The translations under genes and the position numbers were made by a program. From contig CAYGTP010000002.1 in assembly GCA_964352875.1 (NCBI GenBank), forward strand, positions 4,244 through 68,243: a DNA stretch of 64,000 bases. Direction: 5' to 3'. The DNA is from an uncultured Candidatus Saccharibacteria bacterium (lineage in GTDB: Bacteria; Patescibacteriota; Minisyncoccia; Phycocordibacterales; UBA918). Positions 3,933 to 57,962 of this stretch are shown one piece after another (the stretch's first letter is position 1; every line of letters begins with the position of its first letter). Below the pieces are notes generated by a model. That model made no database searches and was not told where the DNA came from. It worked only from the letters and a program-made list of their open reading frames with translations.

Positions 3933-6900
3933 ATGAGTACATGGTTTAAACATAACCGGCTTTTTAACTGTGGTCAAAAGCTTATCACAGGCTTTTTACT
4001 TTGTTTGCTACTATTTTCAGATGTTGTACCGCTCTTATTGTATGGTCCACTGAGCTATAACAAAATTGAGGCGGCCGAAGCACAAATCGATGACTTGGCT
4101 AGTGGCGCCCAAGCTGAACATATTCAAGCTGGTGCCAATACTGTATTTATAGATGACCAGACGGGGTATAAATTTTATGTTGAATCAAATGGTCGGTGCT
4201 TTTATAAAAAAACTACTAATGGTGGAGCTTCGTGGGGGAGTCAAACACAGTTTGATGATGATCCCAATTGTACGAGTCCGGTAGTGTGGTATGACCGATG
4301 GACGCCAGGTGACACTGGCAATTATATCCATATAACAACGCTAGCGATCGGAACTGGTGCTGAAAATATTAATTATAATCGTTTAGATACCGCAGATAAT
4401 GACGCGTTGTTGATGGGTAGCTCGCCAGTAAATATTTCTTCCACAACTATTACAACATTGAGTTTAGGAGCAGGCAACAAACAGGCGATGACTAAAGGGA
4501 CCGATGGTACGATCTACGCTGCCATTAATGACAACGGCGGGTCCCCGGTAGTTGAGTGTTCAGCTGATTGTCAGCTAGAGGGTAGTTGGAGTGCAACGGG
4601 AGTTTCACCAATGGATCTTTCGAATGACTTTTTATTACTGCAGCCAATGCTGGGGGATAATATCATGTTGATTGTTCGCGATGTGTCTGCTGAGGATATA
4701 GAGTATCAGATTTGGAATAACGCTATTTGGGGTGGAGCTTGGAATACCATTGATGCTAATGCATTTGATAACACTACCTATGACGTTGGTATGTCTGCAG
4801 TTACCCATCCTGAAACCGGTGACATCTATCTTGCCTATGTTACAGACCATCAAACCTTAGGGACCGATGATGATATACGCACAGCAAAATACACAGAAAG
4901 TTCTGGTCTATGGACCAATACGGCAGATGTCGTCACTGACGACAGTAAAGGGCTCCTCAGTGTTGCCTTAGCGCTTGATGCTAATACAAGTGATGTGTAT
5001 GTAGCGTATGCAGCTCGCACCACACCAGGTACCGCTAATAGCGCTAATGTGTATTGGGCAAGCTCGACGGCGGCAATGAGTAGTTGGAGCGGGGAGCAAG
5101 GACCGGTTAATAGTGGGAGCGATAATAACTACGGCCTTTCGTTAAATCATTATTCAGACGAGCGAATCCACGCGTCATGGTACGATGACGCTTCGCGTGA
5201 TGTGTTGAGTGACACTATTGCAGATATCACGCCAGTTACTGTCGTTACAGCAACCGGCACACAACGTGCGACGGTACGGGCCAGTACATCAGCAACTTAC
5301 ATTGGTGGGGCGTTTGTCATTAAAGAGAATGTCACAACGAGAAATGTAACTAGTATTACAATCACTGAGCAAGGTACAATAGACGGAGCAACTGCAATTG
5401 GAAATATTGCGCTCTTCTATGATATTTCGACCACTTCCCCGTACAATTGCAGTGAAGACTCATACCAAGGCAATGAGCCACAATTTGACGTCACTGATAC
5501 GAATGGATTTTCAGGTGCTAATGGAATCGCCAGCTTTTCTGATCTTGTGGCTATTTCACCTACTGACACGCTGTGCGTCTATCCAGTGGTAGAGGTTTTA
5601 AAATCTGCCAATGACGGCGATACTATCGATATTACTATTACGAACCCAGCCACTGACGTGTTGGTTGGTGGAAGTGTGACAGCAGTACCGTCGAGTGTGA
5701 TTTCTATTACTGGCAGTACCACTGTGCGTGATGATGTGCTGACGCAGACCCACTATCATTGGCGACAAGATACGGGTAGTGAAGCGCTCTCACCGTCCGC
5801 AACCGGTGGTATAGAAGATACCCCAATTAGTGCTTTGCAGACCGAAGTACCTCGACGACTCCGCATTGGGCTGTCAAACGATGGTTCGACCACAACGTTT
5901 CCGACTACATTTCGGCTTGAGTATGGCGTAGCGGCACCAACCTGCAATGATGTCGGGACGTGGATTGATGTTGCGGAGGCGGATGATGATTGGAATATGT
6001 TTGATTCTAGTAATCTTACCAACGGAGCTGATACCACAGACGTGGCAGTTGGGCTCGGAGGGGTATCGCCAGAAAATAACTTCTTCCTTACACCCAATGG
6101 TGGCGTCCGCGATACCGAATCTGAGACCGGCAGTATGCAAGTAGATTTTGATGAATACACTGCCCTTGAGTATTCGATTGTCGCTTCAACTACGGCCACG
6201 GAAGGAAATACGTATTGCTTTCGTGTGTCGGATCAGGGTCAACCAATTGAACAGTACGATGTGTTGCCACAAGTGACTATTTCAGCAGATGTGCGGGTTC
6301 GAGCCACTGGTACCCAGGCAGTCTCAGCTGATATCCCAACTGATAATCTCTATATCGGAGGTGCTTTTACCATTACCGAAAATGTTTCCAGTCGTGATGT
6401 TACAAGCGTCACATTGACTGAAGTTGGCACGGTTGACGGTGCTGCTGGTGTGACTGACATTCGATTATATTATGATCTTGATACGACGTTCCCATATAAC
6501 TGTGCGAGCGAATCATTTACTGGAAATGAATTGCAGTATGGAGCAACCTCGACAGCGTTCTCGAGTGCCAACGGATCAACTACGTTTACTGCCACAGTGG
6601 GGATTAGTACTACCAGTACACTCTGTCTCTATCCAGTACTCGATATCACACCAGATGCTACCGATGGGGAGACGGTGGATGTGATTCTCAGTTCTGGTTC
6701 TGGTGATGTTGTAGTGTCTGGCGGGGGGTCGGTAGCACCAACGACACCAATCGACATAACTGGCTCCACGACCCTCAATGGCGCGATTGTGACGCAGACA
6801 CACTACCACTGGCGAAATGATTCAGGGAGTGAAACTGGTGCCAGTTCAGCAACTGGCGGTATCGAAGATACGCCACTGACAGATTTCGATTTAGGAGCTG

Positions 6901-9900
6901 AAATCCGTCTCCGTGTTGGTGTATCAAACGAAGGAGCAACCACGTCGATTCCAAAACGTTACGGCCTGGAATATGGTATTAAGCTCGATGAATGTTCTGA
7001 TGTTACCGTGTGGATTGACGTTGCTGATACAGCTGACGCCTGGGACATGTTTGACTCTTCAAATCTTACTAATGGAGAAACGACCACTGATATTAGTACG
7101 ACCACGGGTGGGGTGAGTGATGAAAACGCTGTCTTCTTAGGCAGTAATGGTGGGGTAGTTGATACGGAATCTTTTACAGCTACTACTACTCTTAGGAATA
7201 ATGAATATACTGATTTTGAATACAGCATCACGTCGACAGCCGACACGCTGTATGACAGTACCTATTGTTTCCGTGTGACGCAAAACGGTGTGAGTCTACT
7301 AGCCTATAACACGTATCCTGAAATCACTATGACTCCCAAACGAGACTTCAGAATCCAACGCGGTCAAGTTGTATTAACTGGCACATCAACCACATTACTA
7401 GCAGGGGTTGATTACGTTGCTCCGAGTGCCTCAACTAGCGCGTTTGTCCGGATTACCAACGCACACCATACCGGGGCTGGTCGTAATGATTTGGGTGGTA
7501 ACCAAAACGCCAGAGACTATAGTTCGTATATTGAAAATCCAGAAAATCTAGAAACTAGCATTACCTTTACTCGTAGCCAAGTTAACCCAATCCAAAATAC
7601 TTTTATTTCTTGGGAGCTAGTTGAGTTTGTGGGTGATCCTGGGACAGATAACGAAATGATTGTGCGCGACCATGGCACCATCAATTACAGTGCGTCAGAA
7701 TTAGTAGCCACTGGTACTGCGCTCGGTACAGTTGATACCGATGGTGACGTAGTGGTATTTATTACCGCCCAATCGCATCCAGGAAATACTAGAGCAGAAG
7801 GATATGCTCATCAGTCAACCAGCGAGTGGAATAGTGCCACCGGTGAACCGGTGTTCAGGCGGAGTGCAACTGGTGGCAATGAAGGATTTGTCAGTTATGC
7901 CGTAGTTGAATTCACTGGTATCAACTGGAAAGTGCAGCGAGTTGAACATGATTACGCAGGCACAACTCCAGGTGAGCCAGATTTGGTTCCGATTACTCCA
8001 GTCAATAGTCTTAATCGAACGTTCTTACATACACAGAAGCGGGTTGATGGGAATGGGTTGATGACGGACTTTGGGCACTTGGTGTGGGTGTCGAGTATGG
8101 GGGCGCTGTCGTTCCAGCTAGAAGCTAGTGCTGCAACCACCACAGTCAATCATGTCTCGGTGGCATGGGTAATTGAAAATACGCAAACCAGTGACGGGGC
8201 GATGACAGTGCAACGTGAAGGGAGTACCTTCACTGGAGGTGCTGACGTGCAGACTCGTGCTATTGGTATCTTGACTGAACTTGAAGCTACCAACAATGCG
8301 TCAATTTTTGCAGTTACCAGTCATAGTCAAACAGTAAATAACATGCCACGAGGTTTGGCGAGCTTTTACATTGCTTCAACTACAGCCTATGAAATTTACC
8401 GTGCTGAATCAGCTGGTATTTTATCGTACTGGACCGAGGTTGTGTCATGGCCAGTAGCAAACATATCGGTGCGACAAAATTATTATAATTTCTACGTCGA
8501 AGATGGTCAGCTTGATCCACAAGACCAGTGGCCAGTAGGGCCAAGCAGTGTTGGGGAAAACGCTCCTATCACTGCTTTAGATGAACCTCTCGGAGAAGGT
8601 GAGCGCATTCGTATTAGAATGAGTACTCGGATTGGTAACGCTAACTTACCAGCGGGATTGTTGTCAGTTAAGCTCCAATATGGTGTACGAACAGCAACTT
8701 GCTCGGCAGTGGGCGACTGGTTCGACGTCGGTCAATTTGCCAGCAGTACGATATGGCGCGGGTATGACGTCGCAGCATTAACTGATGGCGTGGCACTTTC
8801 AACCGAACCCCCCGGAATCGGAGATTTGAATCTTTCAGTGTCTGACGTGTCTGGTAGTTACATTGAAGCGAATCCTTCGGTAGCTAACCCGTTTGATGTG
8901 CAAGATGGAGAAGACGTGGAGTTTGATTGGGTAATCGAGCATAATGGAGCAAATAGTAGTACATTTTATTGTTTCCGCATGGTAAATAGCGACGGTACAC
9001 CACTGGATGGCTACTTTAATTACCCAGAATTACGTACCGCTGGATTTACGCCCGTTGGCGGTGATTGGCGTTGGTACGATGATGCTGAAAATATCACACC
9101 AAGTTTAGCGTTGGCAGCAGAGAATGTAGCTCCAACTGATATCGCAAATTCCAATACTATCGTGTTGCGTACGGTCGTTGACGAGCTAAAAGTCGTCCAA
9201 GGCAATAACGTTAAATTTAAGCTGCAATTTTCGCAATCACCAAACTTCTTAACCGCAAGTGATGTAGTTGCGAGTAGTACGTGCCAGGCTGATTCATTGT
9301 GGTGTTATGCCGACGGAGGTGCGAATGATAATACTGTCTTGGCCAGTTCCACGTTAGGTCAGGCGGACAGTTGTTTTGGTGGTGTGGGTAATGGCTGCGG
9401 TAGCTACAATGAATCTGGGACATTAGTTGCAGGCTTGACCCATGCTGCAGGCGCAGCAGCTGAATACGCCTTTGTTTTGCAGCACGCTGGTGCACGCGCG
9501 AATGGGGTATATTATTTCCGTCTGTATGACGTAACAAATGACGCTCCATTAATTGCATCCAGTACCTACCCATCGCTAGTGACCGAAGGAGCGCAACTGG
9601 TATTTGGGGTGGCCGGGTTGCCAAGCGCAACAACTACTGAAGGTGTTGTTACTGATGTAGCAAGTACCCCTGATGCTATTAATTTTGGCACCTTAGGACT
9701 TAATATGGCAATCGAAGCAGCTCATCGACTTTCAGTTGATACTAATGCCACCGAAGGGTATCAGGTATTTGTCTTTGCTACCCAAGACCTGATCAATAGT
9801 TACGGTACCGCTATTGATCCCATCATCAGCACCAACGAAGTGCCAGCGGGCTGGTCCAGCGCCTGTCCCGTTGAGGCTACTGGTTGCTTTGGCTACCATG

Positions 9901-10109
9901 CTGGCGACGATATCTTATCGGGGGCATCCACTCGATTCTCAGCCAATGACAGTTTTGCCGCCTTAACTACGGTGCCGGCCGAAGTACTGTATAACCCCAC
10001 TCCAATTGATGAGTACCATGATGTACTATACAAGATTGAAGTACGTGAAGGACTACCAGCCGGTGACTATGAAACTGACATCGTCTATCTCGCCGTTCCA
10101 GTATTTTAA
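3933..10109 (+). CDS. giant secreted repeat protein (2058 aa) with a possible N-terminal BNR/Asp-box-like region and four copies of a Cys/Trp-marked module
   Basis: Signal/anchor LLCLLLFSDVVPLLLYG; Asp-box-like TTNGGASWG; internal 350-aa tandem repeat plus two further degenerate C-terminal sub-module copies sharing R.R.........Y.GV....C.....W.DV ..... YCFR....G..L..Y..YPE. Confidence 0.7.
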   Translation: MSTWFKHNRLFNCGQKLITGFLLCLLLFSDVVPLLLYGPLSYNKIEAAEAQIDDLASGAQAEHIQAGANTVFIDDQTGYKFYVESNGRCFYKKTTNGGASWGSQTQFDDDPNCTSPVVWYDRWTPGDTGNYIHITTLAIGTGAENINYNRLDTADNDALLMGSSPVNISSTTITTLSLGAGNKQAMTKGTDGTIYAAINDNGGSPVVECSADCQLEGSWSATGVSPMDLSNDFLLLQPMLGDNIMLIVRDVSAEDIEYQIWNNAIWGGAWNTIDANAFDNTTYDVGMSAVTHPETGDIYLAYVTDHQTLGTDDDIRTAKYTESSGLWTNTADVVTDDSKGLLSVALALDANTSDVYVAYAARTTPGTANSANVYWASSTAAMSSWSGEQGPVNSGSDNNYGLSLNHYSDERIHASWYDDASRDVLSDTIADITPVTVVTATGTQRATVRASTSATYIGGAFVIKENVTTRNVTSITITEQGTIDGATAIGNIALFYDISTTSPYNCSEDSYQGNEPQFDVTDTNGFSGANGIASFSDLVAISPTDTLCVYPVVEVLKSANDGDTIDITITNPATDVLVGGSVTAVPSSVISITGSTTVRDDVLTQTHYHWRQDTGSEALSPSATGGIEDTPISALQTEVPRRLRIGLSNDGSTTTFPTTFRLEYGVAAPTCNDVGTWIDVAEADDDWNMFDSSNLTNGADTTDVAVGLGGVSPENNFFLTPNGGVRDTESETGSMQVDFDEYTALEYSIVASTTATEGNTYCFRVSDQGQPIEQYDVLPQVTISADVRVRATGTQAVSADIPTDNLYIGGAFTITENVSSRDVTSVTLTEVGTVDGAAGVTDIRLYYDLDTTFPYNCASESFTGNELQYGATSTAFSSANGSTTFTATVGISTTSTLCLYPVLDITPDATDGETVDVILSSGSGDVVVSGGGSVAPTTPIDITGSTTLNGAIVTQTHYHWRNDSGSETGASSATGGIEDTPLTDFDLGAEIRLRVGVSNEGATTSIPKRYGLEYGIKLDECSDVTVWIDVADTADAWDMFDSSNLTNGETTTDISTTTGGVSDENAVFLGSNGGVVDTESFTATTTLRNNEYTDFEYSITSTADTLYDSTYCFRVTQNGVSLLAYNTYPEITMTPKRDFRIQRGQVVLTGTSTTLLAGVDYVAPSASTSAFVRITNAHHTGAGRNDLGGNQNARDYSSYIENPENLETSITFTRSQVNPIQNTFISWELVEFVGDPGTDNEMIVRDHGTINYSASELVATGTALGTVDTDGDVVVFITAQSHPGNTRAEGYAHQSTSEWNSATGEPVFRRSATGGNEGFVSYAVVEFTGINWKVQRVEHDYAGTTPGEPDLVPITPVNSLNRTFLHTQKRVDGNGLMTDFGHLVWVSSMGALSFQLEASAATTTVNHVSVAWVIENTQTSDGAMTVQREGSTFTGGADVQTRAIGILTELEATNNASIFAVTSHSQTVNNMPRGLASFYIASTTAYEIYRAESAGILSYWTEVVSWPVANISVRQNYYNFYVEDGQLDPQDQWPVGPSSVGENAPITALDEPLGEGERIRIRMSTRIGNANLPAGLLSVKLQYGVRTATCSAVGDWFDVGQFASSTIWRGYDVAALTDGVALSTEPPGIGDLNLSVSDVSGSYIEANPSVANPFDVQDGEDVEFDWVIEHNGANSSTFYCFRMVNSDGTPLDGYFNYPELRTAGFTPVGGDWRWYDDAENITPSLALAAENVAPTDIANSNTIVLRTVVDELKVVQGNNVKFKLQFSQSPNFLTASDVVASSTCQADSLWCYADGGANDNTVLASSTLGQADSCFGGVGNGCGSYNESGTLVAGLTHAAGAAAEYAFVLQHAGARANGVYYFRLYDVTNDAPLIASSTYPSLVTEGAQLVFGVAGLPSATTTEGVVTDVASTPDAINFGTLGLNMAIEAAHRLSVDTNATEGYQVFVFATQDLINSYGTAIDPIISTNEVPAGWSSACPVEATGCFGYHAGDDILSGASTRFSANDSFAALTTVPAEVLYNPTPIDEYHDVLYKIEVREGLPAGDYETDIVYLAVPVF
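5235..6287 (+). repeat. intragenic repeat unit 1 (about 351 aa) of giant protein
   Basis: VTVVTATGTQRATVRAS...YCFRVSDQGQPIEQYDVLPQVTISA aligns colinearly with unit 2 at roughly 50% identity (TQTHYHWR, ATGGIEDTP, WIDVA, MFDSSNLTNG conserved). Confidence 0.8.
6288..7330 (+). repeat. intragenic repeat unit 2 (about 348 aa) of giant protein
   Basis: DVRVRATGTQAVSAD...YCFRVTQNGVSLLAYNTYPEITMT; tandem with unit 1. Confidence 0.8.
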
Positions 10110-25008: not shown

Positions 25009-26226
25009 ATGTTTGAAGCTGGAGTTGGAATTGCTGATGGAAGTGACGAATATGCAGTTGGGGTAAAAGCAGCCTCTGATGCAATGGCAAAATTGCAGGA
25101 AAAGCAAGTTGATGCAAAAGCTAATGTCGCTATTGTCTTTGCCTCGTCAAAATACAATCATAGTACAGTATTGTCTGGGATAGAGTCTGTGGTCGGCCCA
25201 GACACCAAGATTGTCGGCGCTAGTACAGCCGGCGAAATCACTCAAGCTGGACCATCGATACGTGAATCTGTAGTTGTGATGGTGTTGGCCTCTGATTCAG
25301 TGCAGTTTGCTAGCACCTATAGCGAAAATATTCATACTACTTCACATGAAGCTGGTATACATTTAGCTCAAGAAATTAAAACGGCATTACATGAACCACA
25401 ACTCATTACTATGTTTGCCGATGGTCTTCGCGGCAATGGTTCAGCTATTATTCGAGGTATTTTGGAAGTATGTGGGGACAACTTTCCAGTGGTGGGTGGT
25501 TCAGCTGGCGACGATGGAAAATTTGAAAAAACCTTCCAATTTCATGGTACTGATGTACGTTCCAACTCTGTGACCGGACTTGGATTTGCTGGCCCAGTAG
25601 ATTTTTCAGTGGGGGTCAATCACGGCTGGAGCGCGGTTGGGGCGGCTAGAACTGTTACTGACTCAGATGGTGCTACGGTCAAGACTATTGACGGTAAACC
25701 AGCGTTTGAACTATACAAAGATTATTTGGGAGATGAAGCTGATAATCTAAAGCAATATACACTCGGTGAAATTGCACTTTCCTACCCACTTGGGATTTTG
25801 GACGAAGCGTCCGGTGAAGTCTTATTGCGGGCACCTTTTGCCGTTGATGACAATGGCGCCATTGTATGCGGTGGGGAAGTGGCAGTAGGATCTAAGGTAC
25901 AGCTTATGATGGGAACTAAAGAAGATGCGATTGTAGCAGCTAAAAAAGCCGCGACGGTAGCCAAGGCAGGGTTTGTTGGCGACCATATCAGCGCCGCTTT
26001 AATCTTTAGTTGTCACGTTCGTAATACATTGTTTGCAAACAGTGATGCGGCCAAGGGCGAAGTTGATGCCATTAGCCAGGTTATTGGAGTAGACGTCCCA
26101 TTGATTGGCTTTTACACGTATGCTGAACAAGCACCGGTTGGAGGCACTGCTCACAACATAAAAAATTGCAATCCAGAATTTCACAACGAGACAGTGGTTG
26201 TGGTGTTGTTGGGAGAAACAAAATAA
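25009..26226 (+). CDS. FIST sensory domain protein (FIST_N + FIST_C)
   Basis: NVAIVFASSKY...IVGASTAGEI and C-terminal FIST_C-like segment; 3-nt gap to the downstream kinase. Confidence 0.65.
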   Translation: MFEAGVGIADGSDEYAVGVKAASDAMAKLQEKQVDAKANVAIVFASSKYNHSTVLSGIESVVGPDTKIVGASTAGEITQAGPSIRESVVVMVLASDSVQFASTYSENIHTTSHEAGIHLAQEIKTALHEPQLITMFADGLRGNGSAIIRGILEVCGDNFPVVGGSAGDDGKFEKTFQFHGTDVRSNSVTGLGFAGPVDFSVGVNHGWSAVGAARTVTDSDGATVKTIDGKPAFELYKDYLGDEADNLKQYTLGEIALSYPLGILDEASGEVLLRAPFAVDDNGAIVCGGEVAVGSKVQLMMGTKEDAIVAAKKAATVAKAGFVGDHISAALIFSCHVRNTLFANSDAAKGEVDAISQVIGVDVPLIGFYTYAEQAPVGGTAHNIKNCNPEFHNETVVVVLLGETK

Positions 26227-26229
26227 CCC

Positions 26230-27057
26230 ATGAGCGAAACCGAGACATTACAAAACCGGATTGCAGAGCTGGAAGCCGAACTCAAGAGTATGGATAAAAG
26301 CGCTCAAATGCTCGTACGCCGCGATCTTGAACTACGTCGAGCCAATGGTCGCTTGCAAGCACTCGACAGTGCCAAATCAGAATTTGTCTCAATCGCAGCC
26401 CACCAGATGCGCACGCCACTTTCGGCTATAAAATGGTCACAACAAATGCTCTATGACGAAGAGCTTGGACCGTTGACGGTAGAACAAAAACAAATGGTTT
26501 CGCAAACTAGTAAAAGCGCGACTAGACTCATACGTCTAGTGAACAACTTGTTAGACGCAGATCATTTAGAAGTAGGTCGGGCTCAATACGATACAACAGA
26601 AGTTGACCTGATTGTGGTATTGCAAGAAATTATCACTGATTTGCAATCGGCAGCTCAAGAAAAAAAGATTGATATAAAATTATTAGTAGATCGAGAAATC
26701 CCGTTACTGCATTTTAATCGGGAACGACTAAAGGACATTTTCTTTAATTTAGTCGATAATGCTATTAAATATACTCCGGCTACTGGTACTATAACTATTC
26801 AAGCTACTCCAGTTAGTGGGGTGACGGTTATGGTGTCAGATACAGGCATTGGTGTACCTGAGATTCACAAGGAGAAGCTGTTCAGTCGCTTTGCTCGAGC
26901 CGAAAACGCCAAGCGGGTAGATGCTGATGGTTCCGGGTTGGGACTATACATTGTTAAGAAGATTATTGAAGCTAACGACGGTACTATCACTTGTGATAGT
27001 ACCGAAGGAGTTGGTACGCGGTTTACTATCAATCTGCCAAACGTTGTGCAGAAATGA
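26230..27057 (+). CDS. cytoplasmic sensor histidine kinase (coiled coil, HisKA, HATPase_c)
   Basis: H-box SIAAHQMRTPL; N, G1 and G2 boxes (DNAIKYT, DTGIGV, GSGLGL); no TM. Confidence 0.8.
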   Translation: MSETETLQNRIAELEAELKSMDKSAQMLVRRDLELRRANGRLQALDSAKSEFVSIAAHQMRTPLSAIKWSQQMLYDEELGPLTVEQKQMVSQTSKSATRLIRLVNNLLDADHLEVGRAQYDTTEVDLIVVLQEIITDLQSAAQEKKIDIKLLVDREIPLLHFNRERLKDIFFNLVDNAIKYTPATGTITIQATPVSGVTVMVSDTGIGVPEIHKEKLFSRFARAENAKRVDADGSGLGLYIVKKIIEANDGTITCDSTEGVGTRFTINLPNVVQK

Positions 27058-27094
27058 TTATTTTGCCTGCAAATACAGTATAATAATAAACAAT

Positions 27095-27913
27095 ATGTCA
27101 GGAAAAGTACTCGAAAAAAAGAAAATTGTATTGATAGAAGATAACTTGTTTTTGTCAGATATCATTACCAAAAAACTTGAGTATCACGGTGCAAAGATAA
27201 TCAGATTTTCAAATGGACTTGAAGGACTCGCAGGTATCAGAAAAGAGCAGCCAGATTTAGTGTTATTAGATATTGCAATGCCAGTAATGAATGGCTATGA
27301 AGTATTGCAAGTCATGTATGCAGAAAAACTCACAGAAAAAATTCCAGTGATTGTCATTTCTAATTCTGGTCAACCAGTTGAAATTGAACGGGTAAAACAA
27401 CTAGGTGTTCGTGACTATTTGGTAAAAGCTAATTTTGAACCGACGGAAGTTTTAGAAAAGGTATTTGCGGTCATGAATATTGAGTCTGGTGCAAAACCTG
27501 CTTTTGAAACCAACCACGAATCCCAATCAGGTGACAAAGTAGTAAAAGTGATGGTGGTAGAAGATGACCCGTTACTCCGTAACTTATTGTCAGTAAAACT
27601 ATCAAAATCAGGTTGTCCCCACATGTTTAGTAGCGACGGATCAGAGGCATTTTCAATGATTTCTCAATACCAACCAACGGTGATTGTGTTAGACATGATG
27701 CTCCCGGGTAAAACAGGACTAGAAATTCTAGCTGAACTCAAAGCTGATGCAGCTTTAAAAAATATTCCTGTGGTAATTTTTTCAAACAAAAGTGATGACG
27801 CGGACAAGATAAAAGCCAAAGAACTTGGAGCTGAACAGTATTATGTAAAAGCTATGACTGACCTAACCGAATTTGTGACTGAGCTGCGATCCATTGCACA
27901 GAGTACACAGTAA
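27095..27913 (+). CDS. tandem-receiver (REC-REC) response regulator without output domain
   Basis: Two CheY-like domains (IVLIEDN...LLDIAMPVMNG and VMVVEDDP...VLDMMLPGKTG). Confidence 0.8.
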   Translation: MSGKVLEKKKIVLIEDNLFLSDIITKKLEYHGAKIIRFSNGLEGLAGIRKEQPDLVLLDIAMPVMNGYEVLQVMYAEKLTEKIPVIVISNSGQPVEIERVKQLGVRDYLVKANFEPTEVLEKVFAVMNIESGAKPAFETNHESQSGDKVVKVMVVEDDPLLRNLLSVKLSKSGCPHMFSSDGSEAFSMISQYQPTVIVLDMMLPGKTGLEILAELKADAALKNIPVVIFSNKSDDADKIKAKELGAEQYYVKAMTDLTEFVTELRSIAQSTQ

Positions 27914-27914
27914 C

Positions 27915-27938
27915 TGTCTATAACACAGATTATAGACA
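27915..27938. promoter_or_regulatory. palindrome TGTCTATAA-N6-TTATAGACA upstream of the surface-protein gene
   Basis: 9-bp perfect inverted arms, 25 nt before the ATG at 27963, no T-run. Confidence 0.4.
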
Positions 27939-27962
27939 ACTGTACACGGTATACTATTATCA

Positions 27963-30710
27963 ATGCCGTCAAAGAAAGCGGAATCTAGCAAGATAGTACA
28001 TAAACCAAAGCGGACTAAACTCGCTGCTGCCAAAAAGACAGTCACACCAAAAGCAAAAGCGAAGGTAAAACCAGCTATTGTTCGTGTGCCAAAGCAGGTT
28101 GCCAAACCTAAAATCTCAAAAAAGATAGTCCCAGTTAAAAAATCTCTGACCAAAAAGTCTTTACCAGCGCCGACAGTCACTTTGACTAAGGTAGCGGAAC
28201 CTGTCTTGATTGCCGATAAACGTTTTAGCCTAGTGGCTTTGGCACCACTCAAGCCGATGCAAATAGCAATGTTTACCCGGGTCGCCGGTTTATTTTTTGT
28301 AATGCTCGGGGCCTTCTTTTCGTTGTACCACATGCCCTATGTGTTTGATGCGAACGTCCAAATGGCGCAAGTCAGTAGTTCTGTTACCACGACCACATCG
28401 CAGACAACCCCAACCAATTCACTAGGAGTGTCCGGAGAGTTTGTTGTTCCAACTGGTGAACTACATGGCGATGTTCGGCTTGAATACACTCACAATGAAG
28501 CGCAATCAGTAAAATTTTTAGCGTACCAAGTTTCTACTGATGAATTCATTACTCTTGGTACTGCTGAGCGAACCACTAACACTCGTTGGAGAAAAACTAT
28601 CAACACTGAACATTTAGACGATGGACAATATAAATTTATCGCGATAGTGACAGTAGCTGGCAACGCTTGGCAAGATCCATTGCAAATCACTCGCACCATT
28701 AAAAACACAATTCATATTATTCCTGACGTGTCCCTTACTGTAAAACAAAATGGGCAACTAGTTAGCTCACCAGTTACAGCTACATTAGACGACCAAGTGT
28801 CTTTGGTCTGGACGATTGAACCTGCAAGTGCAGAGTGTACTTTGGCGCGAGATGGTGACGGGTTTAAAACTATTAACGGCACGAACTCCTTTGCTATATC
28901 ACTGACTGATATTGATTCATCAGTATTTTCTGTTTTGTGTGTACATGAAACAGATGAAATTGAAAAACAAGTAGTCATTTCTGTAACGGATGCGTTAACA
29001 GAAGATTTGGAAGAGATTACTACGAATACGAACGACGTTGTAACCGAGACTCAATCTGTAAATGAAGCAGACAACACAGCCGACTCGACTAAAGAAACCG
29101 ACGCTGACAATGACGAGATTGATGAAGTTACAGCTGTCACAGTAGACATTGATGAAATTGACGTAGTCGTACCCACCGAAGTATCTGAAGAGGTAGACGA
29201 ATCAGAGCAACCGACCGAATCAACACCACTACTTAAAACTCCCGAGACCATCCAAACCCCAACCCCTACACCAGCAGAAATAAAGCCATCAGTTGTATTA
29301 GAATTACCAGAGCGAGATTTTTTGACTGACACCATTGAGATATCGATTGCAGTAGACGGAGCGCAGTTTATTGAATTATATGTACAGAGTGAACGTTCAG
29401 GTGAAGCTCGGTTTGTCGGACTAGCCAAAAAGCGCAGTGATGGTACCTGGCGAGCTAGACTTGAAACAGTCAATATTCCAAATGGTCGGTACGCTCTCTA
29501 TGCTAAAGTAAAAAATATTTATGGTTTATATCAAAGCTCATCGGTCAACATAGCTATTCAAAATAAAAACGAAACCACACCAACACCAGCTCAAGTTGAA
29601 ACCTTTGGTCTGATTCAGACTGTCGGCTCTGACCTCAAAGAACTAGTAACGGACCCACCAGTCATCGATACCCTGGTTGCCAATCAGTTAAAAACCAGTG
29701 CACGTGACCAAGTTTCAGATGACTCTGAAACAAATATAATCAACGATGAAACAATTGCGGCAACTGAGCAAAATTTAGAAGAGCAGTTCCAAGCCCTCCG
29801 TCTTGCTATACGTAATAATGATCAAAATGCCATTCAAGCAATCAAACAGTCTGTACGAACCATTCAGAACGATATTATTTCACAGACCGCCAGCGCAGAC
29901 GACGAACAAACAGCGATAGCCGACAGTATAGAAAAGCGTATTGTTGAACGTGAGAAAGATATTGAGCGAAAAGAATTAATCATCCGTGATCGCGTCGGTG
30001 ACGCTGCGTTACTTGACTCTGACCAAGACGGAGTAACTGATTATGACGAAATAAATCTCTACCAAACCAACCCACTGGCGGCAGACTCTGACCTGGATGG
30101 AGTGATAGACAGTGCAGAAATTGAACGAGGCTTTAATCCTAACGATGCTTCACCAGAAGCGCTGGTTCGCTTTGAATCACCAAAAGAAGTCGGTGAAGTA
30201 CGAAAGGATATTCTTGAGATCACTACGTTGGCAACTATTGTAGACTCAGACAACACTGGTGCAGGAACTAGTGATGGGGTTGCTGCCCAAGCTATGATTT
30301 CAGGACGTGGACTACCAAACAGCTTTGTTACGGTGTATATCTTTAGTACACCGGTAGTAGTAACAGTAAAAACCGACAGCACTGGCGCCTGGTCATACAC
30401 CTTTGAGAAAGAGCTAGAAGATGGTACTCACGAAGTATATGTTGGTATTACTGATAACGCAGGTAGAATTGTGGCAAAAAGTGAACCATTAGCGTTTGTA
30501 AAGCAAGCTCAAGCCTTTTCACCAGTAAATGCCGCCTCAGTTGAAACTCCAACTATCACTACAGCAACACCAGAGCGTTCACTGAGCTCGACTTCGTCTA
30601 TGCTCTTAATTGCTTCAATTTCAGTAGTAGCGATTGGTTTAGTGTTGATATTACTTGGACTTTACATTGACCGACGTGAACGAAGCGAAATAACTCCGGT
30701 GACTGCATGA
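27963..30710 (+). CDS. bitopic cell-surface protein with K/P/A-rich cytoplasmic N-tail, large extracellular region with thrombospondin-type-3-like Ca-binding repeats, and C-terminal TM
   Basis: N-terminal KPKRTKLAAAKKTVTPKAKAKVKPAIV... (histone H1-like); TM VAGLFFVMLGAFFSLY; DSDQDGVTDYDE and DSDLDGVIDSAE; C-terminal TM LLIASISVVAIGLVLILLGLYI. Confidence 0.65.
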   Translation: MPSKKAESSKIVHKPKRTKLAAAKKTVTPKAKAKVKPAIVRVPKQVAKPKISKKIVPVKKSLTKKSLPAPTVTLTKVAEPVLIADKRFSLVALAPLKPMQIAMFTRVAGLFFVMLGAFFSLYHMPYVFDANVQMAQVSSSVTTTTSQTTPTNSLGVSGEFVVPTGELHGDVRLEYTHNEAQSVKFLAYQVSTDEFITLGTAERTTNTRWRKTINTEHLDDGQYKFIAIVTVAGNAWQDPLQITRTIKNTIHIIPDVSLTVKQNGQLVSSPVTATLDDQVSLVWTIEPASAECTLARDGDGFKTINGTNSFAISLTDIDSSVFSVLCVHETDEIEKQVVISVTDALTEDLEEITTNTNDVVTETQSVNEADNTADSTKETDADNDEIDEVTAVTVDIDEIDVVVPTEVSEEVDESEQPTESTPLLKTPETIQTPTPTPAEIKPSVVLELPERDFLTDTIEISIAVDGAQFIELYVQSERSGEARFVGLAKKRSDGTWRARLETVNIPNGRYALYAKVKNIYGLYQSSSVNIAIQNKNETTPTPAQVETFGLIQTVGSDLKELVTDPPVIDTLVANQLKTSARDQVSDDSETNIINDETIAATEQNLEEQFQALRLAIRNNDQNAIQAIKQSVRTIQNDIISQTASADDEQTAIADSIEKRIVEREKDIERKELIIRDRVGDAALLDSDQDGVTDYDEINLYQTNPLAADSDLDGVIDSAEIERGFNPNDASPEALVRFESPKEVGEVRKDILEITTLATIVDSDNTGAGTSDGVAAQAMISGRGLPNSFVTVYIFSTPVVVTVKTDSTGAWSYTFEKELEDGTHEVYVGITDNAGRIVAKSEPLAFVKQAQAFSPVNAASVETPTITTATPERSLSSTSSMLLIASISVVAIGLVLILLGLYIDRRERSEITPVTA

Positions 30711-32050
30711 TTTCAACGGCACTGTATGCGTTTGAACGAAGTGTTAAATATTTGCGGCATCACCCGCAAGTCATTTTCATTCTATTATTGATTATCGTAA
30801 TGCCAGTGCTATTTCTTTATAGCGGGCAACAGTTTCTTGATGCTGGCAGATCAAATCAAGAACGGCTTCAGAAAGATCGCATCGGACTTCTCCATGATTC
30901 ATTTGTTGCTGTATTGAGTGCAACTAACGTTGATACAGCTATTTTGCAGTCCCAAATTACAGAACTAGTAAAAAACAATCCTGATTTTATCCAGTTTCAA
31001 GTTGTAATACACAAACCTGGCGAAGTCCGTGTTATAGCGGCCGCGAATCAAGAAATGGTTGGTACAATTGAGACCAATGTCGAACCATATCGTTTTTCTA
31101 CCATTAATCTAGACGAATCGTTTATTGTAGAAGTACAACGAAGTAAAGAGCACTACTGGCAAGCCTTCCGTAGTGTCCGACACACTGACGATAACCTCTA
31201 TACCATTTTTACAGAACAGTCATTAACACAAATCGATGCTGTATTTTCAGCCCGGGAACGCGAAGCATATTACTCATTAGTCGTTATTTACTTATTCATT
31301 TTTGGCTTGGCTTTCTGGCATATCAAACTTACTGATTACCGCTATCTCTATCAAAAAGTGGCTAAAGCTAACGAAATGAAAGACCTCTTTACCAACATGA
31401 TTGCTCACGAATTGAGGGCACCGATTACAGCGATTCGAGGTTATGCGAGTCTACTAGAAGAAGACACTACCCTCGCTGGTACCCAGCGCGAACAAGCCGG
31501 TAAAATTTCCAAGTCTAGTATCCGATTGTTAACGGTGATAAATGATTTTTTAGATATTGCTCGTATGCAATCTGGTAAATTGTCAGTCGAAAAAAAGCCA
31601 ACCAACATATCAGAAGTGGTCCAAGCAGTTTGCAGTGAGCTCAGTATCCAAGCTAAAGAAAAAAATATAGCTCTTATTCATTCTGACACTGATATAGCTC
31701 ACATCATCAACACTGACGGCAAGCGGCTTCATCAAGTTTTAATTAATATAGTAAATAACTCGATAAAATATACTGAATCAGGCACTATCGAAGTGGCTTT
31801 GTTTGAAAACGACACCAAGCTCGAAATCAGAGTTAAAGACACTGGTATGGGAATCAACGCCGACGAACAGAAAAATCTTTTTGTACCATTTCATCGAGTT
31901 GAGGGTGAGGAAACCAAAACTATCACTGGGACCGGACTGGGTATGTGGATTACTAAACAGTTGGTTGACTTGTTGGGAGCTTCGATTGGAGTCGAATCTA
32001 TAAAAAGCGTTGGTACCCACGTTGTTATTACGTTTCCTAAGCACTCATAA
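30707..32050 (+). CDS. membrane sensor histidine kinase (2 TM with extracytoplasmic sensor domain)
   Basis: TMs VIFILLLIIVMPVLFLY and LVVIYLFIFGLAFW; H-box MIAHELRAPI; HATPase boxes; ATGA overlap with the upstream gene. Confidence 0.8.
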   Translation: MISTALYAFERSVKYLRHHPQVIFILLLIIVMPVLFLYSGQQFLDAGRSNQERLQKDRIGLLHDSFVAVLSATNVDTAILQSQITELVKNNPDFIQFQVVIHKPGEVRVIAAANQEMVGTIETNVEPYRFSTINLDESFIVEVQRSKEHYWQAFRSVRHTDDNLYTIFTEQSLTQIDAVFSAREREAYYSLVVIYLFIFGLAFWHIKLTDYRYLYQKVAKANEMKDLFTNMIAHELRAPITAIRGYASLLEEDTTLAGTQREQAGKISKSSIRLLTVINDFLDIARMQSGKLSVEKKPTNISEVVQAVCSELSIQAKEKNIALIHSDTDIAHIINTDGKRLHQVLINIVNNSIKYTESGTIEVALFENDTKLEIRVKDTGMGINADEQKNLFVPFHRVEGEETKTITGTGLGMWITKQLVDLLGASIGVESIKSVGTHVVITFPKHS

Positions 32051-34757: not shown

Positions 34758-35387
34758 ATGTCATCGAACACATTTGTCAGTCTTGTTCTCGCGATGGCGC
34801 TGGTGGTAGTAGTGTCTAATGTCTTGGTGCAATTTTTGTTCGGTGATTGGTTGACCTGGGCAGCCTTTACGTATCCAATTGCTTTTCTTATTACTGATCT
34901 AGCCAATCGACTCCTAGGACCGGCAGCGGCTCGAAAGATTGTTTTCTACGGCTTTATCGTGGGAGTACTATGTTCACTGTTGGCTAGTCAGCTCGAAACT
35001 GCCGATGGGGTGCCGTATACTACGTTGCGTATTGCACTTGGTTCTGGTTTAGCATTCTTGATTGCGCAACTCACCGATGTGTATGTCTTTTCAAGACTGC
35101 GCCACGCGAGTTGGTGGAAGGCACCAGCCCTCTCTTCAGTTGCCGGTTCGGTCATTGATACAGCAATTTTCTTTACCGTGGCATTCTCGGCGGCGTTTAT
35201 ATTTCTTGAACCAACCAACGATGTCTCATGGGCAACCGAACTAATCCCACTGCTTGGCGTGGGGCCAGTGGTACCACTGTGGGTGAGTCTGGCAACTGCT
35301 GACTTCGGAGTGAAATTACTCTTGGTGGCATTAGCTCTGCTACCGTTTAAATTACTCGTCTCCCATTTTTCTCGGTCCAATGACTAA
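34758..35387 (+). CDS. queuosine-precursor transporter (YhhQ/DUF165 family)
   Basis: FTYPIAFLITDLANRLLGPAAARK matches the YhhQ signature region; 6 TM. Confidence 0.65.
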   Translation: MSSNTFVSLVLAMALVVVVSNVLVQFLFGDWLTWAAFTYPIAFLITDLANRLLGPAAARKIVFYGFIVGVLCSLLASQLETADGVPYTTLRIALGSGLAFLIAQLTDVYVFSRLRHASWWKAPALSSVAGSVIDTAIFFTVAFSAAFIFLEPTNDVSWATELIPLLGVGPVVPLWVSLATADFGVKLLLVALALLPFKLLVSHFSRSND

Positions 35388-57800: not shown

Positions 57801-57960
57801 CTGGCGCACCTGGGAGTACTGTACTGACAATCCCTACCGGAATCACCACTTCTGGTGAAGATTCTTTTGGAATGGCAATCAAGGTATACATACCAAGTCC
57901 TATGAGTGCAATCAGAAACAAATACGCGAACTTGCTGTTGCGGATAAAAAATTCCCACAT
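54877..57960 (-). CDS. RND-family efflux transporter permease (AcrB/HAE-like)
   Basis: 1027 aa, 12-TM with two large extracytoplasmic loops; typical RND N-terminus and GxxxD motifs. Confidence 0.85.
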   Translation of the reverse strand: MWEFFIRNSKFAYLFLIALIGLGMYTLIAIPKESSPEVVIPVGIVSTVLPGAPAADVESLITNEIERGLTALENVDQITSVSREGVSSVTVEFDANADLDTSIQDLKDEVDKIKQDLPDNAEDPFVSEVNFVDQPILTFAIAGDLSPFAFTELAIDVEREIEKLAGVSRVETGGVQDREVTVIVDQAALLRFGLSLSDITNAIRNANITLPIGQIENNGVAYNVAFEGDITDSAHIANIGITTRGGQPVYIRDIATVVDGLAPASSISRLSVANEPSQNSISFDVYKQTGGDITAIARGINDRLAELQEPNQLLENLTVLTVLDAGEQIEKDLVRLSSSGLQTVLLVVLLLVIAIGWREGLLAGAAIPLSFLFGFIGLYFSGNTINFLSLFSLILGIGILVDSAIVMVEGINRKMKDNPTIDKQQAAIETIQEFKAPLISGTLTTVSMFVGLFIVSGVIGQFIASIPFTLIFLLFASMFVALAIIPLLAAGFLRRRSETKLEQRQTEYSRQLESWYRKQLDKILNNKKAERIFLWGIRLALVAALILPAVGIVKVVFFEQGDVDFIIVEVENPEGTVKEITDIGARRVEEILYEAPDIESFTVTVGSGSQFGGGGSGEKLANMFVSLRDDRTRTSTEIVEDLRLAMASIRDIKVTVNQPSDGPPTGAAIIVKFLGDDLTEITRFANESAEIFKSTPNITNVESSTNNNNTEFVLELDRAKATALGLNPFTISQIARTAVFGTDATSLTTLNEDIDVVVKLNVDNNRIVTSDTTNQASIGSLSRISIPTPTGNEVPLSSLVNISLRESSSVINHEDSKRVVTVTADVTADGNAREAQAAAMARITSELAIPDDVEISTGGGETDESNQAFIEMLLALLVGIGLMVGVLTLQFNSYRYTIYVLSILPYSLIGIMIGLAITQNPLSFPSIMGFIALSGIVVNNSILLIDMMNQMRAKNPLRPIREVVLDAAGNRLRPILLTTATTVIGMVPLTYAGDLWAPLAYAVMFGLIFSVVITLVLIPVAYNRKPG

Positions 57961-57962
57961 AA

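Follow-up and report, generated by a model that had tools for sequence, protein, structure and literature searches.

A surface protein with a polycationic, predicted cytoplasmic tail is encoded in overlap with a sensor histidine kinase in Candidatus Saccharibacteria

Saccharibacteria and the wider Patescibacteria live attached to host bacteria, and to our knowledge the means by which they perceive a host, or the state of their own envelope, are essentially unknown. The locus described here, located in a 64-kb window (the whole stretch of DNA that was analysed), encodes a large surface protein with a lysine-rich N-terminal tail, hereafter BIG, followed at once by a histidine kinase. It raises the question of whether the two proteins work together at the envelope, and of what a strongly basic tail would do inside the cell.

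The open reading frame of BIG was found as earlier described, and hydropathy analysis located hydrophobic segments at residues ~99–128 and ~873–905, in agreement with a preliminary description of a 915-aa protein with a transmembrane (TM) helix, a large extracellular region and a C-terminal TM helix. The region between the two segments carries a net charge of -72. Judged by sequence comparison, BIG is not an orphan; it is a member of a large, uncharacterised, Saccharibacteria-specific surface-protein family, with 908 cluster representatives at E<=1e-30 in Candidatus Saccharibacteria. Tail statistics were taken from 120 of the top 150 matches, those in which both anchors were found by a hydropathy scan, and gave a median N-terminal tail of 110 aa with a net charge of +21.5 and a median ectodomain net charge of -52. 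The features of the gene and its flanks are as follows.

27095..27913, + strand: REC-REC protein, two receiver domains, without an output domain (Pfam/NCBIfam)
27915..27938, no strand: perfect palindrome TGTCTATAA-N6-TTATAGACA (9+9 match)
27950..27955, + strand: -10-like hexamer TATACT, 7 nt before the BIG ATG (similar hexamer in 26 of 35 orthologous upstream regions)
27963..30710, + strand: BIG, 915-aa surface protein, predicted to be membrane-anchored at both ends (N-in, C-in)
27963..28247, + strand: polycationic disordered N-terminal tail, aa 1–95, net +23, predicted cytoplasmic (composition, family, pLDDT ~40, flank charge)
28254..28358, + strand: TM1 helix and conserved juxtamembrane segment, aa 98–132 (conservation, model)
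28437..28700, + strand: Ig-like beta-sandwich A, aa 159–246 (pLDDT 81–95; Big_7 matches to such a module in orthologues)
28710..29282, + strand: variable region, aa 250–440 (gapped or variable among relatives, low model confidence)
29295..29558, + strand: Ig-like beta-sandwich B, aa 445–532 (conserved W...W.T...PNG.Y motif; model)
29586..30011, + strand: helical stalk or bundle, aa 542–683 (AlphaFold2 model)
30015..30152, + strand: two bacterial thrombospondin-type-3 (DxDxDG...D..E) calcium-type loops, aa 685–730 (motif, conservation, Pfam in orthologues)
30216..30524, + strand: membrane-proximal Big_13 Ig-like domain, aa 752–854 (51.6 bits, cut-off 27)
30591..30686, + strand: TM2 helix, aa 877–908 (conservation, hydropathy, model, flank charge)
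30707..32050, + strand: sensor histidine kinase, 447 aa, start overlapping the BIG stop (ATGA; Pfam, hydropathy, model)

The side of the membrane on which the tail lies can be read from the charges flanking the two helices in 111 sequences. The ratio of K+R to D+E was 310:126 before TM1 and 50:287 after it, and 29:183 before TM2 and 280:119 after it. These sequence statistics, taken on all four TM flanks, put both termini in the cytoplasm (predicted N-in/C-in) and fit the earlier placement of the tail on the cytoplasmic side. The same orientation follows from the two helices enclosing Ig-like domains and Ca-loops, which are normally extracellular domain types. That the tail instead lies outside and binds wall polymers, or is not made because translation starts near TM1, seems to us very improbable. 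The window protein does have a methionine (M99) just before TM1; however, M99 aligns with V, I or L in orthologues, so that there is no conserved internal start, and over 100 diverged orthologues keep a 5' frame that is open and rich in lysine codons. Together with a -10 box at a fixed distance of 6–10 nt before the annotated ATG, the lack of a conserved internal start indicates that the tail is translated.

Both anchors are conserved in the manner of folded domains. Conservation scores reached 0.58 in TM1 and 0.66 in TM2, against 0.24 in the tail and 0.21–0.24 in the linkers. In TM1, R106, G109 and G116 are invariant or nearly so; in TM2, G892 is invariant and G899 at least 90% conserved, and a short basic stub (DRRER...) follows the helix. 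The AlphaFold2 model is confident for the helices and beta-sandwiches, with a pLDDT of ~40 in the tail. A sortase-anchored surface protein was considered and rejected: no LPXTG-type motif was found before TM2, where the sequence is ...ATPERSLSSTSS and the family consensus only SL.S, and TM2 is highly conserved, as expected of a retained helix.

Between the anchors, the ectodomain is ordered as Ig-like domains, a helical stalk, two calcium-type TSP3 loops and the membrane-proximal Big_13 domain, the last being the most conserved part of the family. Its match to Big_13 (PF19077; E 1.4e-13, aa 758–844) is accompanied by matches above the cut-off in all 10 orthologues tested. Relatives differ in how long the membrane-distal part is and how many domains it has; in BIG itself, residues 250–440 comprise a protein-specific insert, rich in beta-strand-forming residues and with two Cys, and then a linker of strongly acidic character. 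The two TSP3-like calcium loops proposed earlier, DSDQDGVTDYDE (685–696) and DSDLDGVIDSAE (708–719), carry the DxDxDGxxDxxE motif with D and E positions invariant in 111 family members, although the TSP3_bac (PF18884) score of the window protein is sub-threshold (15.9 bits, gathering cut-off 25 bits); 7 of 10 orthologues tested pass this cut-off, with up to 43.7 bits. By fold, the ectodomain matched giant adhesins that bind Ca (SiiE and the extender domains of an ice-binding adhesin) and otherwise generic Ig-like domains only.

In the tail, residues 1–95 contain 24% K, 14% A, 13% V and 12% P, and of the plausible genes in the window BIG alone encodes 40 consecutive residues with a net charge >= +15. 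As a tail of net charge >= +10 was also present in 94% of 111 family members, the lysine richness is not a matter of chance. Charge is kept across the family and the sequence itself is not; a few members are almost tail-less (minimum 7 aa). The K/P/A/V "repeats" of the preliminary description proved to be a low-complexity K/A/V/P-rich sequence, Tandem Repeats Finder detecting no tandem repeats. The term "histone-H1-like" stands for composition and lysine spacing and fails for homology: no match was found in Pfam (residues 1–133, E<=10), by sequence in the PDB (E<=10) or in sequence databases (E<=0.01), and the family-wide composition (K22 T11 A10 S10 V10 R6 P5 %) is less rich in K, A and P than the H1 tail. 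In the family tails, KK doublets are enriched (z +7), lags 2–3 depleted and lags 4–5 enriched, and AKK, KKA, TKK and KKT stand at about twice the shuffled frequency; S/TPKK occurs just 15 times over 109 tails.

Comparison with AlgP and H1 repeats thus yielded neither homology nor tandem repeats, and on sequence grounds the tail cannot be assigned to the lysine-rich nucleoid proteins of the H1, AlgP or Hc1 type, whose tandem repeats (KPAA, S/TPKK, PAKKA) it lacks. An anti-sigma or RodZ-like tail, also suggested earlier, was not supported, since residues 1–93 have a pLDDT of ~40 and no secondary structure in the AlphaFold2 model, and zf-HC2/RskA or HTH domains are absent from residues 1–133 (Pfam). 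The single-pass regulators RodZ, anti-sigma factors and ToxR/CadC share with BIG the N-in arrangement of a cytoplasmic N-terminal segment, a TM helix and an extracytoplasmic domain; unlike them, BIG has no HTH, zinc-finger or anti-sigma fold, its N-terminal 93 residues are predicted to be disordered and it carries a second, C-terminal TM helix. The tail resembles the H1 C-terminal domain, the mycobacterial HupB/Hlp C-terminal tail, Pseudomonas AlgP and chlamydial Hc1/Hc2, which are likewise disordered and strongly basic, consisting mostly of K with A, T, P, V and S, with KK doublets flanked by A or T every 4–5 residues; a HupB tail shows the same lag pattern as the family tails. In contrast to these proteins, the BIG tail has lower charge density, often V, T, S or I for A, and is part of a membrane protein, whereas theirs are joined to a DNA-binding core such as a histone fold or HU.

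By its HisKA (63 bits) and HATPase_c (85.5 bits) matches, the downstream gene is a HisKA-type two-component sensor histidine kinase. No NCBIfam equivalog cut-off was reached, and it is therefore not assignable to WalK, PhoR or similar kinases. Its two hydrophobic segments (TM1, aa 22–42; TM2, aa 187–209; conservation score 0.72) enclose an extracytoplasmic alpha/beta sensor domain (aa 43–173), modelled as a long helix followed by a five-strand domain with pLDDT ~90, which we take to be PDC-like. TM2 runs directly into the DHp helix, where H234 is invariant in 68 homologues, and the catalytic domain follows. Over its full length, the kinase was matched best in the PDB by WalK, as a chain of the integrative WalK-YycH model (E 6.5e-20), with further fold matches to HK853, GacS and others.

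The two genes are tightly joined. At the junction (...gtg act gca TGA, with the kinase ATG at 30707) the BIG stop and the start of the 2-TM kinase form the ATGA overlap reported before, and the translationally coupled pair proved to be conserved in relatives: the kinase lies immediately after BIG in all 73 metagenomic loci with room downstream, 51 of which have the 4-nt overlap. An own -10-like box was observed in 6 of 62 kinase genes and an SD-like motif in 4 of 62. The order uvrB-(REC)-BIG-HK-uvrA is fixed. Directly upstream of BIG, a REC-REC or single-REC gene is present in 32 of 53 relatives and missing in 21. The tail is dispensable for the pairing itself, given the near-tailless members and a distant non-Saccharibacteria relative that keeps the kinase with a tail of merely 12 aa.

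Upstream of BIG, the palindrome noted before does lie in the promoter region. Its right arm (27930–27938) matches a motif conserved upstream of orthologues, AGTTATCGACA, agreeing with the family-conserved form TTATCGACA at 8 of 9 positions, and the left arm repeats it in inverted orientation. The palindrome starts 2 nt past the REC-REC stop codon, is present once in the window (with <=3 mismatches allowed, a match arose in 3 of 100 shuffles) and as RNA would fold with -14.3 kcal/mol (z -2.7), without a downstream U-tract. Among 35 distinct orthologous upstream regions, 26 have a -10-like hexamer ending 6–10 nt before the ATG and 2 have SD-like motifs; no Shine-Dalgarno sequence precedes BIG in the window. 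With a -10 box so close to the ATG, BIG is apparently transcribed from its own promoter with the conserved upstream motif, as a leaderless or nearly leaderless mRNA. This comparative evidence suggests that first genes of operons in Saccharibacteria are often leaderless and without Shine-Dalgarno sequences, which matters for gene calling.

From these features we infer that BIG and the kinase function as one envelope-sensing unit. The overall explanation that we prefer, with confidence a little short of even, is that the doubly anchored BIG is a co-sensor of the kinase with a polyanion-binding tail. BIG would be a stoichiometric accessory of the kinase, would contact it through the unusually conserved TM helices and the membrane-proximal module, and would relay envelope, surface or host-contact cues. 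Functionally it may resemble the accessory membrane proteins of WalK (YycH/YycI, Bacillota) and MtrB (lipoprotein LpqB, Actinomycetota), which act through TM and ectodomain contacts; in these systems, too, the kinase is a 2-TM HisKA protein whose alpha/beta sensor domain is extracytoplasmic, and its gene adjoins that of a conserved protein, anchored in the membrane and largely exposed outside the cell. Any likeness is one of function alone: no YycH, YycI or LpqB match was found in BIG (Pfam, NCBIfam), which has no sequence or domain in common with them. Unlike those accessories, BIG is encoded upstream of and overlapping the kinase, is anchored by two TM helices and bears a polycationic tail on the cytoplasmic side; unlike WalK, the kinase has no HAMP or PAS domain and its operon no DNA-binding regulator. 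The tail itself would be an arm that binds polyanions of the cytoplasm electrostatically. Nucleic acid is the most probable partner, because the K/T/A/V/P/S make-up of the tail with KK every 4–5 residues is closer to DNA-binding lysine-rich tails than to lipid-inserting polybasic segments, which usually carry aromatic and bulky hydrophobic residues. Against this, no homology between the tail and a DNA-binding protein was detected, and the charge density of the tail, ~0.31–0.34 per residue, is below the ~0.4 of H1/HU tails. Gene overlap proves co-expression and not a complex, and the kinase, equipped with a sensor domain of its own, might need no partner.

The ectodomain, with just generic Ig-like adhesin matches, would fit a plain adhesin equally well. 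BIG could be above all an adhesin or a structural protein of the envelope, serving for instance to attach the cell to its host or to span the wall as a spacer. The kinase would then only regulate BIG or share its operon, and the tail would be topogenic, hugging the membrane through anionic phospholipids rather than nucleic acid and fixing the N-in orientation of the acidic 750-aa ectodomain. This is possible, though on balance rather unlikely. Adhesins typically contain modules such as Big_13, Big_7 and TSP3, and SiiE, RTX-type ice-binding adhesin and TSP3-repeat surface proteins combine Ig-like beta-sandwiches with DxDxDG calcium-type loops and give the top structural matches; a membrane-distal part of variable length suits a host-facing surface, conservation of charge alone suits non-specific electrostatics, and the motif conserved upstream points to BIG as a target of regulation. 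However, BIG is much smaller than these proteins, TM-anchored at both ends instead of secreted or wall-linked, and invariably kinase-coupled, with adjacency and overlap tighter than ordinary regulator–target linkage. A passive anchor needs no TM helices conserved like folded domains with (nearly) invariant Gly and Arg, a tail of ~100 residues with a net charge of +21 greatly exceeds the needs of orientation, and the tail has none of the aromatic and bulky hydrophobic residues of lipid-inserting segments.

The tail could also be a signalling arm, an output or docking site for an acidic REC-only protein or the kinase cytoplasmic domains, with DNA/RNA binding that changes with phosphorylation and substitutes, tethered to the membrane, for a DNA-binding response regulator; we consider this improbable. 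The sole response-regulator gene of the locus, and of the window, encodes the output-less REC-REC protein (net charge -7), such genes often stand directly upstream of BIG, and Thr beside KK is enriched about twofold, which would permit charge switching by phosphorylation, though that step is speculation. On the other hand, many loci have no upstream REC gene, a DNA-binding regulator could lie elsewhere in the genome beyond the window, and conservation of the AGTTATCGACA site speaks for a factor that recognises a specific sequence, which a low-complexity tail cannot be. In its furthest form, to which we likewise give little credence, the surface protein of these ultrasmall epibiotic bacteria would link the cell exterior to nucleoid or RNA, its grip switched by the kinase and by REC or REC-REC proteins docking on the tail or masking its charge, and this membrane-tethered output would replace the DNA-binding response regulator. 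No major paradigm is changed unless a signalling or nucleoid-tethering role of the tail is proved.

In the environmental contigs of Saccharibacteria that were examined, few signalling units are as rigidly conserved as the BIG–kinase locus (73/73), which makes a well-defined candidate for sensing of a surface or host. Its conserved cis-element can be used to search for its regulator, and in BIG the part played by a long, disordered, polycationic tail, predicted to lie on the cytoplasmic side of a receptor-like protein of bacteria, can be put to the test. Additionally, a further block was observed between uvrB and the REC-REC gene, an accessory insertion that few relatives have.

25009..27057, + strand: FIST-domain (NosP-like) protein and cytoplasmic histidine kinase (Pfam/NCBIfam)

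The preliminary description reported a 915-aa surface protein (BIG) whose gene overlaps that of a membrane histidine kinase, and both open reading frames were recovered as claimed:

27963-30710 (+): BIG, 915 aa, with a lysine-rich N-terminal tail, TM1, ectodomain and TM2
30707-32050 (+): histidine kinase with two TM helices, 447 aa

The junction reads gca-TGA, with the kinase ATG at 30707, which confirms the ATGA overlap. The recurrence of the pair in relatives, suggested earlier as a check, was also borne out. With the conserved BIG C-terminus as query, 80 metagenomic loci (L084-L163) were retrieved, of which 76 had an identifiable BIG. In 73 of the 76, the next gene is the kinase; in the remaining three, the contig stops less than 100 nt past BIG. 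The two genes overlap by exactly 4 nt (intergenic distance -4) in 51 of the 73 loci, and three contexts found from the kinase side display the same gene order. Kinase genes seldom have their own -10 box (6/62) or SD (4/62), which is consistent with coupled translation. Gene order and spacing indicate that BIG and the kinase form a conserved, co-expressed and translationally coupled pair.

The kinase is followed by uvrA in all 55 loci scored for this position, while the gene upstream of BIG (53 loci) encodes a protein with two receiver domains (REC-REC) in 26 cases, a single REC protein in 6 and uvrB in 21. The uvr flanks may represent conserved gene order in the group, and no functional link is drawn from them. 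In the window, the stretch between uvrB and BIG (25009-27913) encodes a FIST (NosP-like) protein, whose similarity to NosP is weak (78.8 bits vs a cut-off of 450 bits), as well as a cytoplasmic kinase of the HisKA type and a REC-REC protein that has no output domain. No further receiver-domain protein was found within the 64 kb window, and two kinases may converge on this one output-less double receiver. Additionally, a tRNA-guanine transglycosylase gene (TGT) was observed just upstream of uvrB, and a Vut_1 membrane protein (34758-35387, +), putatively involved in the uptake of a vitamin or queuosine precursor, between uvrA and uvrC.

BIG is not an orphan. When 1.84 billion representatives were searched exhaustively with HMMER, 7781 matched at E<=1e-3 and 908, as strong relatives, at E<=1e-30; lengths are 800-1050 aa in nearly all cases, and residues 420-910 match best. 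A word-indexed search with the whole protein, capped at 8000 candidates, listed BIG and a single weak Big_13 match, and the orphan impression that it gave was due to this cap. A scan of genome contigs with the single BIG protein gave no relatives, and an alignment-based genome scan, whose output was dominated by the generic TSP3 pattern, gave about five true ones, which sufficed to identify the clade as Candidatus Saccharibacteria. For the kinase, over 1700 homologues of full length were retrieved, the best of them at 47-56% identity. The GC content of the window is 45%. In named genome records, the true BIG relatives belong to Candidatus Saccharibacteria or Patescibacteria, besides two MAGs labelled Acidimicrobiales and Gammaproteobacteria that carry a locus of the Saccharibacteria/CPR type (L004, JBLIMJ010000008.1, and L007, CAZVMV010000005.1). 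L004 shows the usual uvrB-REC-BIG-HK-uvrA order and the neighbours in L007 are CPR-like; both contigs are probably mis-binned. On these grounds the window is assigned to a Saccharibacterium. In L007 (3838-8073), a 947-aa BIG-related protein, which has a TM at its C-terminus, directly adjoins a 2-TM kinase. Its relationship to BIG is C-terminal (tblastn, 36% over query residues 684-907), and its N-terminal cytoplasmic segment comprises just about 12 aa.

Existing annotation of the BIG family is limited to generic Ig and TSP3 domains. Literature searches on the family, and on lysine-rich tails of bacterial membrane proteins, returned nothing relevant, and the main text of PMC10633639 contains nothing on the family. 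The supplements of that Tn-seq study describe the cultivated Saccharibacterium Southlakia epibionticum, in which uvrB and uvrA are widely separated and neither adjoins a kinase, and in which SEML1_0315, a 927-aa essential hypothetical protein, is not followed by a kinase (PMC10633639). No BIG orthologue could be assigned in these data, as both the uvr layout and the context of SEML1_0315 disagree. Natural competence is described for Saccharibacteria (PMC10633639).

The hydrophobic segments of BIG lie at about 99-128 and 873-905, and the region between them has a net charge of -72. In a hydropathy scan, both anchors were found in 120 of the top 150 representatives, with a median ectodomain net charge of -52 in these 120. 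Pfam identified Big_13 (51.6 bits) at aa 758-844, while TSP3_bac scored below threshold at 685-705. An AlphaFold2 model built from 111 sequences (mean pLDDT 67) predicted the following regions:

1-93: disordered, pLDDT about 40
98-132: TM1 helix
159-246 and 445-532: beta-sandwiches
252-432: low confidence
542-683: helices
685-730: TSP3 region
752-854: beta-sandwich
877-908: TM2 helix

Most relatives lack an insert at aa 250-440 (window 28710-29282). It comprises about 110 aa rich in beta-strand-forming residues, with two Cys, followed by an extremely acidic linker rich in D, E and T (net -22 over 81 aa), and it is modelled with low confidence. Column conservation, taken as the mean frequency of the commonest residue in the 111-sequence alignment, was 0.24 in the tail, 0.21-0.24 in the linkers, 0.58 in TM1, 0.66 in TM2, 0.69 in the TSP3 loops and 0.81 in Big_13. 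In the same alignment, R106, G109 and G116 of TM1 are invariant or nearly so, G892 of TM2 is invariant, and G899 is kept in at least 90% of sequences. The TM helices and the membrane-proximal module are conserved to the same degree as folded domains.

The preliminary description assigned the tail to the cytoplasm. This was assessed by the positive-inside rule across the 111 sequences.

Charged residues flanking the TM helices of BIG (K+R : D+E)
20 aa before TM1: 310:126
about 16 aa after TM1: 50:287
about 16 aa before TM2: 29:183
8 aa after TM2: 280:119

Because of these flank charges, and because the Ig-like and Ca-loop domains sit between TM1 and TM2, an N-in/C-in topology with a cytoplasmic tail is predicted, and not a tail outside the cell.

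Residues 1-95 consist of 24% K, 14% A, 13% V and 12% P, with a net charge of +23, and no other plausible gene in the window encodes 40 consecutive residues with a net charge of at least +15. The K/P/A/V repeats described earlier hold as a composition rich in these residues but not as repeats, since no tandem repeat was detected in this low-complexity sequence. Among the 120 representatives, the median N-tail has 110 aa, a net charge of +21.5 (range +2 to +42) and 25% K+R. A net charge of at least +10 was found in 94% of the tails of the 111-sequence alignment, and the pooled composition was 22% K, 11% T, 10% each of A, S and V, 6% R and 5% P. The tail is conserved as charge only. In view of the very short tails of a few family members, and of the 12-aa tail in L007, the long tail is taken to be a Saccharibacteria-specific addition not needed for pairing, and the pairing with the kinase seems older than the long tail.

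The tail had also been called histone-H1-like. It had no match in Pfam, the PDB or sequence databases, and homology to H1, AlgP or Hc1 was rejected on this basis; what remains is a resemblance in lysine patterning. KK doublets are enriched (z +7), lysines 2 or 3 positions apart are under-represented (z -13 and -8), those 4 or 5 positions apart are over-represented (z +5 and +9), and AKK, KKA, TKK and KKT occur at about twice their shuffled frequency. In a comparison that is indicative only, the mycobacterial HupB tail has the same lag profile as the BIG tails, unlike human H1.4, and both HupB tail and H1.4 carry about 0.4 charges per residue vs 0.31-0.34 in BIG tails. A 156-aa antisense ORF (27863-28333, -) runs across the tail-coding region and was judged an artefact, the complement of A-rich lysine codons.

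There is no conserved internal start in BIG, as M99 aligns to V/I/L in relatives. The 5' frame is open and lysine-rich across more than 100 diverged orthologues, indicating that the tail is genuinely translated. Two elements were located upstream of the start codon:

27915-27938: perfect palindrome TGTCTATAA-N6-TTATAGACA, one occurrence in the window
27950-27955 (+): -10-like TATACT, 7 nt before the BIG ATG

Of 35 distinct upstream regions, 26 contain a hexamer resembling a -10 box (TATAAT or TATACT) that ends 6-10 nt ahead of the annotated ATG, and just 2 contain an SD-like motif; this spacing and the scarcity of SD suggest that the BIG mRNA is leaderless. A -35/-10 pair proposed by the scanner (TAGACA-16-TATTAT) was rejected, as it would initiate transcription within the ORF; the family alignment favours TATACT as the -10. 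Across L084-L163, a -10-like hexamer 4-11 nt before the ATG was observed for BIG (26/35), REC/REC-REC (21/29), uvrB (8/13) and the kinase (6/62), and SD-like motifs were near-absent at REC, uvrB, BIG, HK, uvrA and uvrC starts (0-5 per gene class). In these Saccharibacteria, first genes thus seem to be leaderless in many cases.

Furthermore, 27-30 loci have AGTTATCGACA within the 120 nt that precede BIG, and 32 occurrences of its core pattern were counted in the rest of the sequence (roughly 1.2 Mb of both strands). The layout AGTTATCGACA-N31-TATA(A/C)T-N6-9-ATG is shared by 28 distinct sequences from loci including L001-L004 and L084-L163, with fixed distances and a non-conserved spacer sequence. 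As the orthologous upstream regions have no conserved -35 box, and the motif centre lies near -48 if transcription starts at the ATG, AGTTATCGACA is likely an activator or operator site. These alignments indicate that BIG has a promoter of its own and, upstream of it, a conserved motif. The palindrome had been placed in the promoter region, and its right arm, TTATAGACA, indeed matches 8 of 9 positions of AGTTATCGACA, 11 nt from the -10 box, i.e. 20 nt closer than in orthologues. It is not a conserved inverted repeat: perfect inverted repeats of at least 7 nt were found in 4 of 47 orthologous upstream regions vs 2.3 expected, none reached 9 nt, and one arm alone is conserved, as a single motif. 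The left arm, TGTCTATAA, is an inverted copy of the motif and immediately follows the stop codon of the upstream gene. Folded as RNA, the palindrome reaches -14.3 kcal/mol (z -2.7) with no U-tract, and it may have a role as a 3' stem-loop of the upstream message.

Pfam assigned HisKA and HATPase_c domains to the kinase, and neither Pfam nor the model (mean pLDDT 83) revealed a HAMP or PAS domain. In the model, TM1 is followed by a long helix and a five-strand alpha/beta sensor domain (pLDDT about 90), which we read as possibly PDC-like, and TM2 is continuous with the DHp helix. The best full-length structural match was the WalK chain of the WalK-YycH integrative model. YycH and YycI act with WalK, and LpqB with MtrB, as accessory proteins. 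By analogy with these systems, BIG would act as an accessory protein or co-sensor of the kinase. Its tail would bind polyanions in the cytoplasm, with nucleic acid as the most probable ligand. The main alternative is that BIG serves as an ordinary adhesin or envelope protein and that its tail attaches to anionic lipids; the PDB fold search with the ectodomain gave generic Ig-like matches only, led by Ca-binding adhesins such as SiiE. Read as a kinase with an accessory membrane protein, the locus is of a known kind, and it differs from that kind in several features: the double anchor, the polycationic cytoplasmic tail, the putatively leaderless promoter and the lack of a DNA-binding regulator at the locus.

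Elsewhere in the window, a 2058-aa ORF (3933-10109, +) and the preceding 622-aa ORF (2044-3912, +) had no Pfam matches at E<=1e-4. A full-length AcrB-type RND transporter (600 bits) adjoins an HlyD-type membrane-fusion protein at 54877-59537 (-); Saccharibacteria, the group from which the window comes, are generally described as having no outer membrane.
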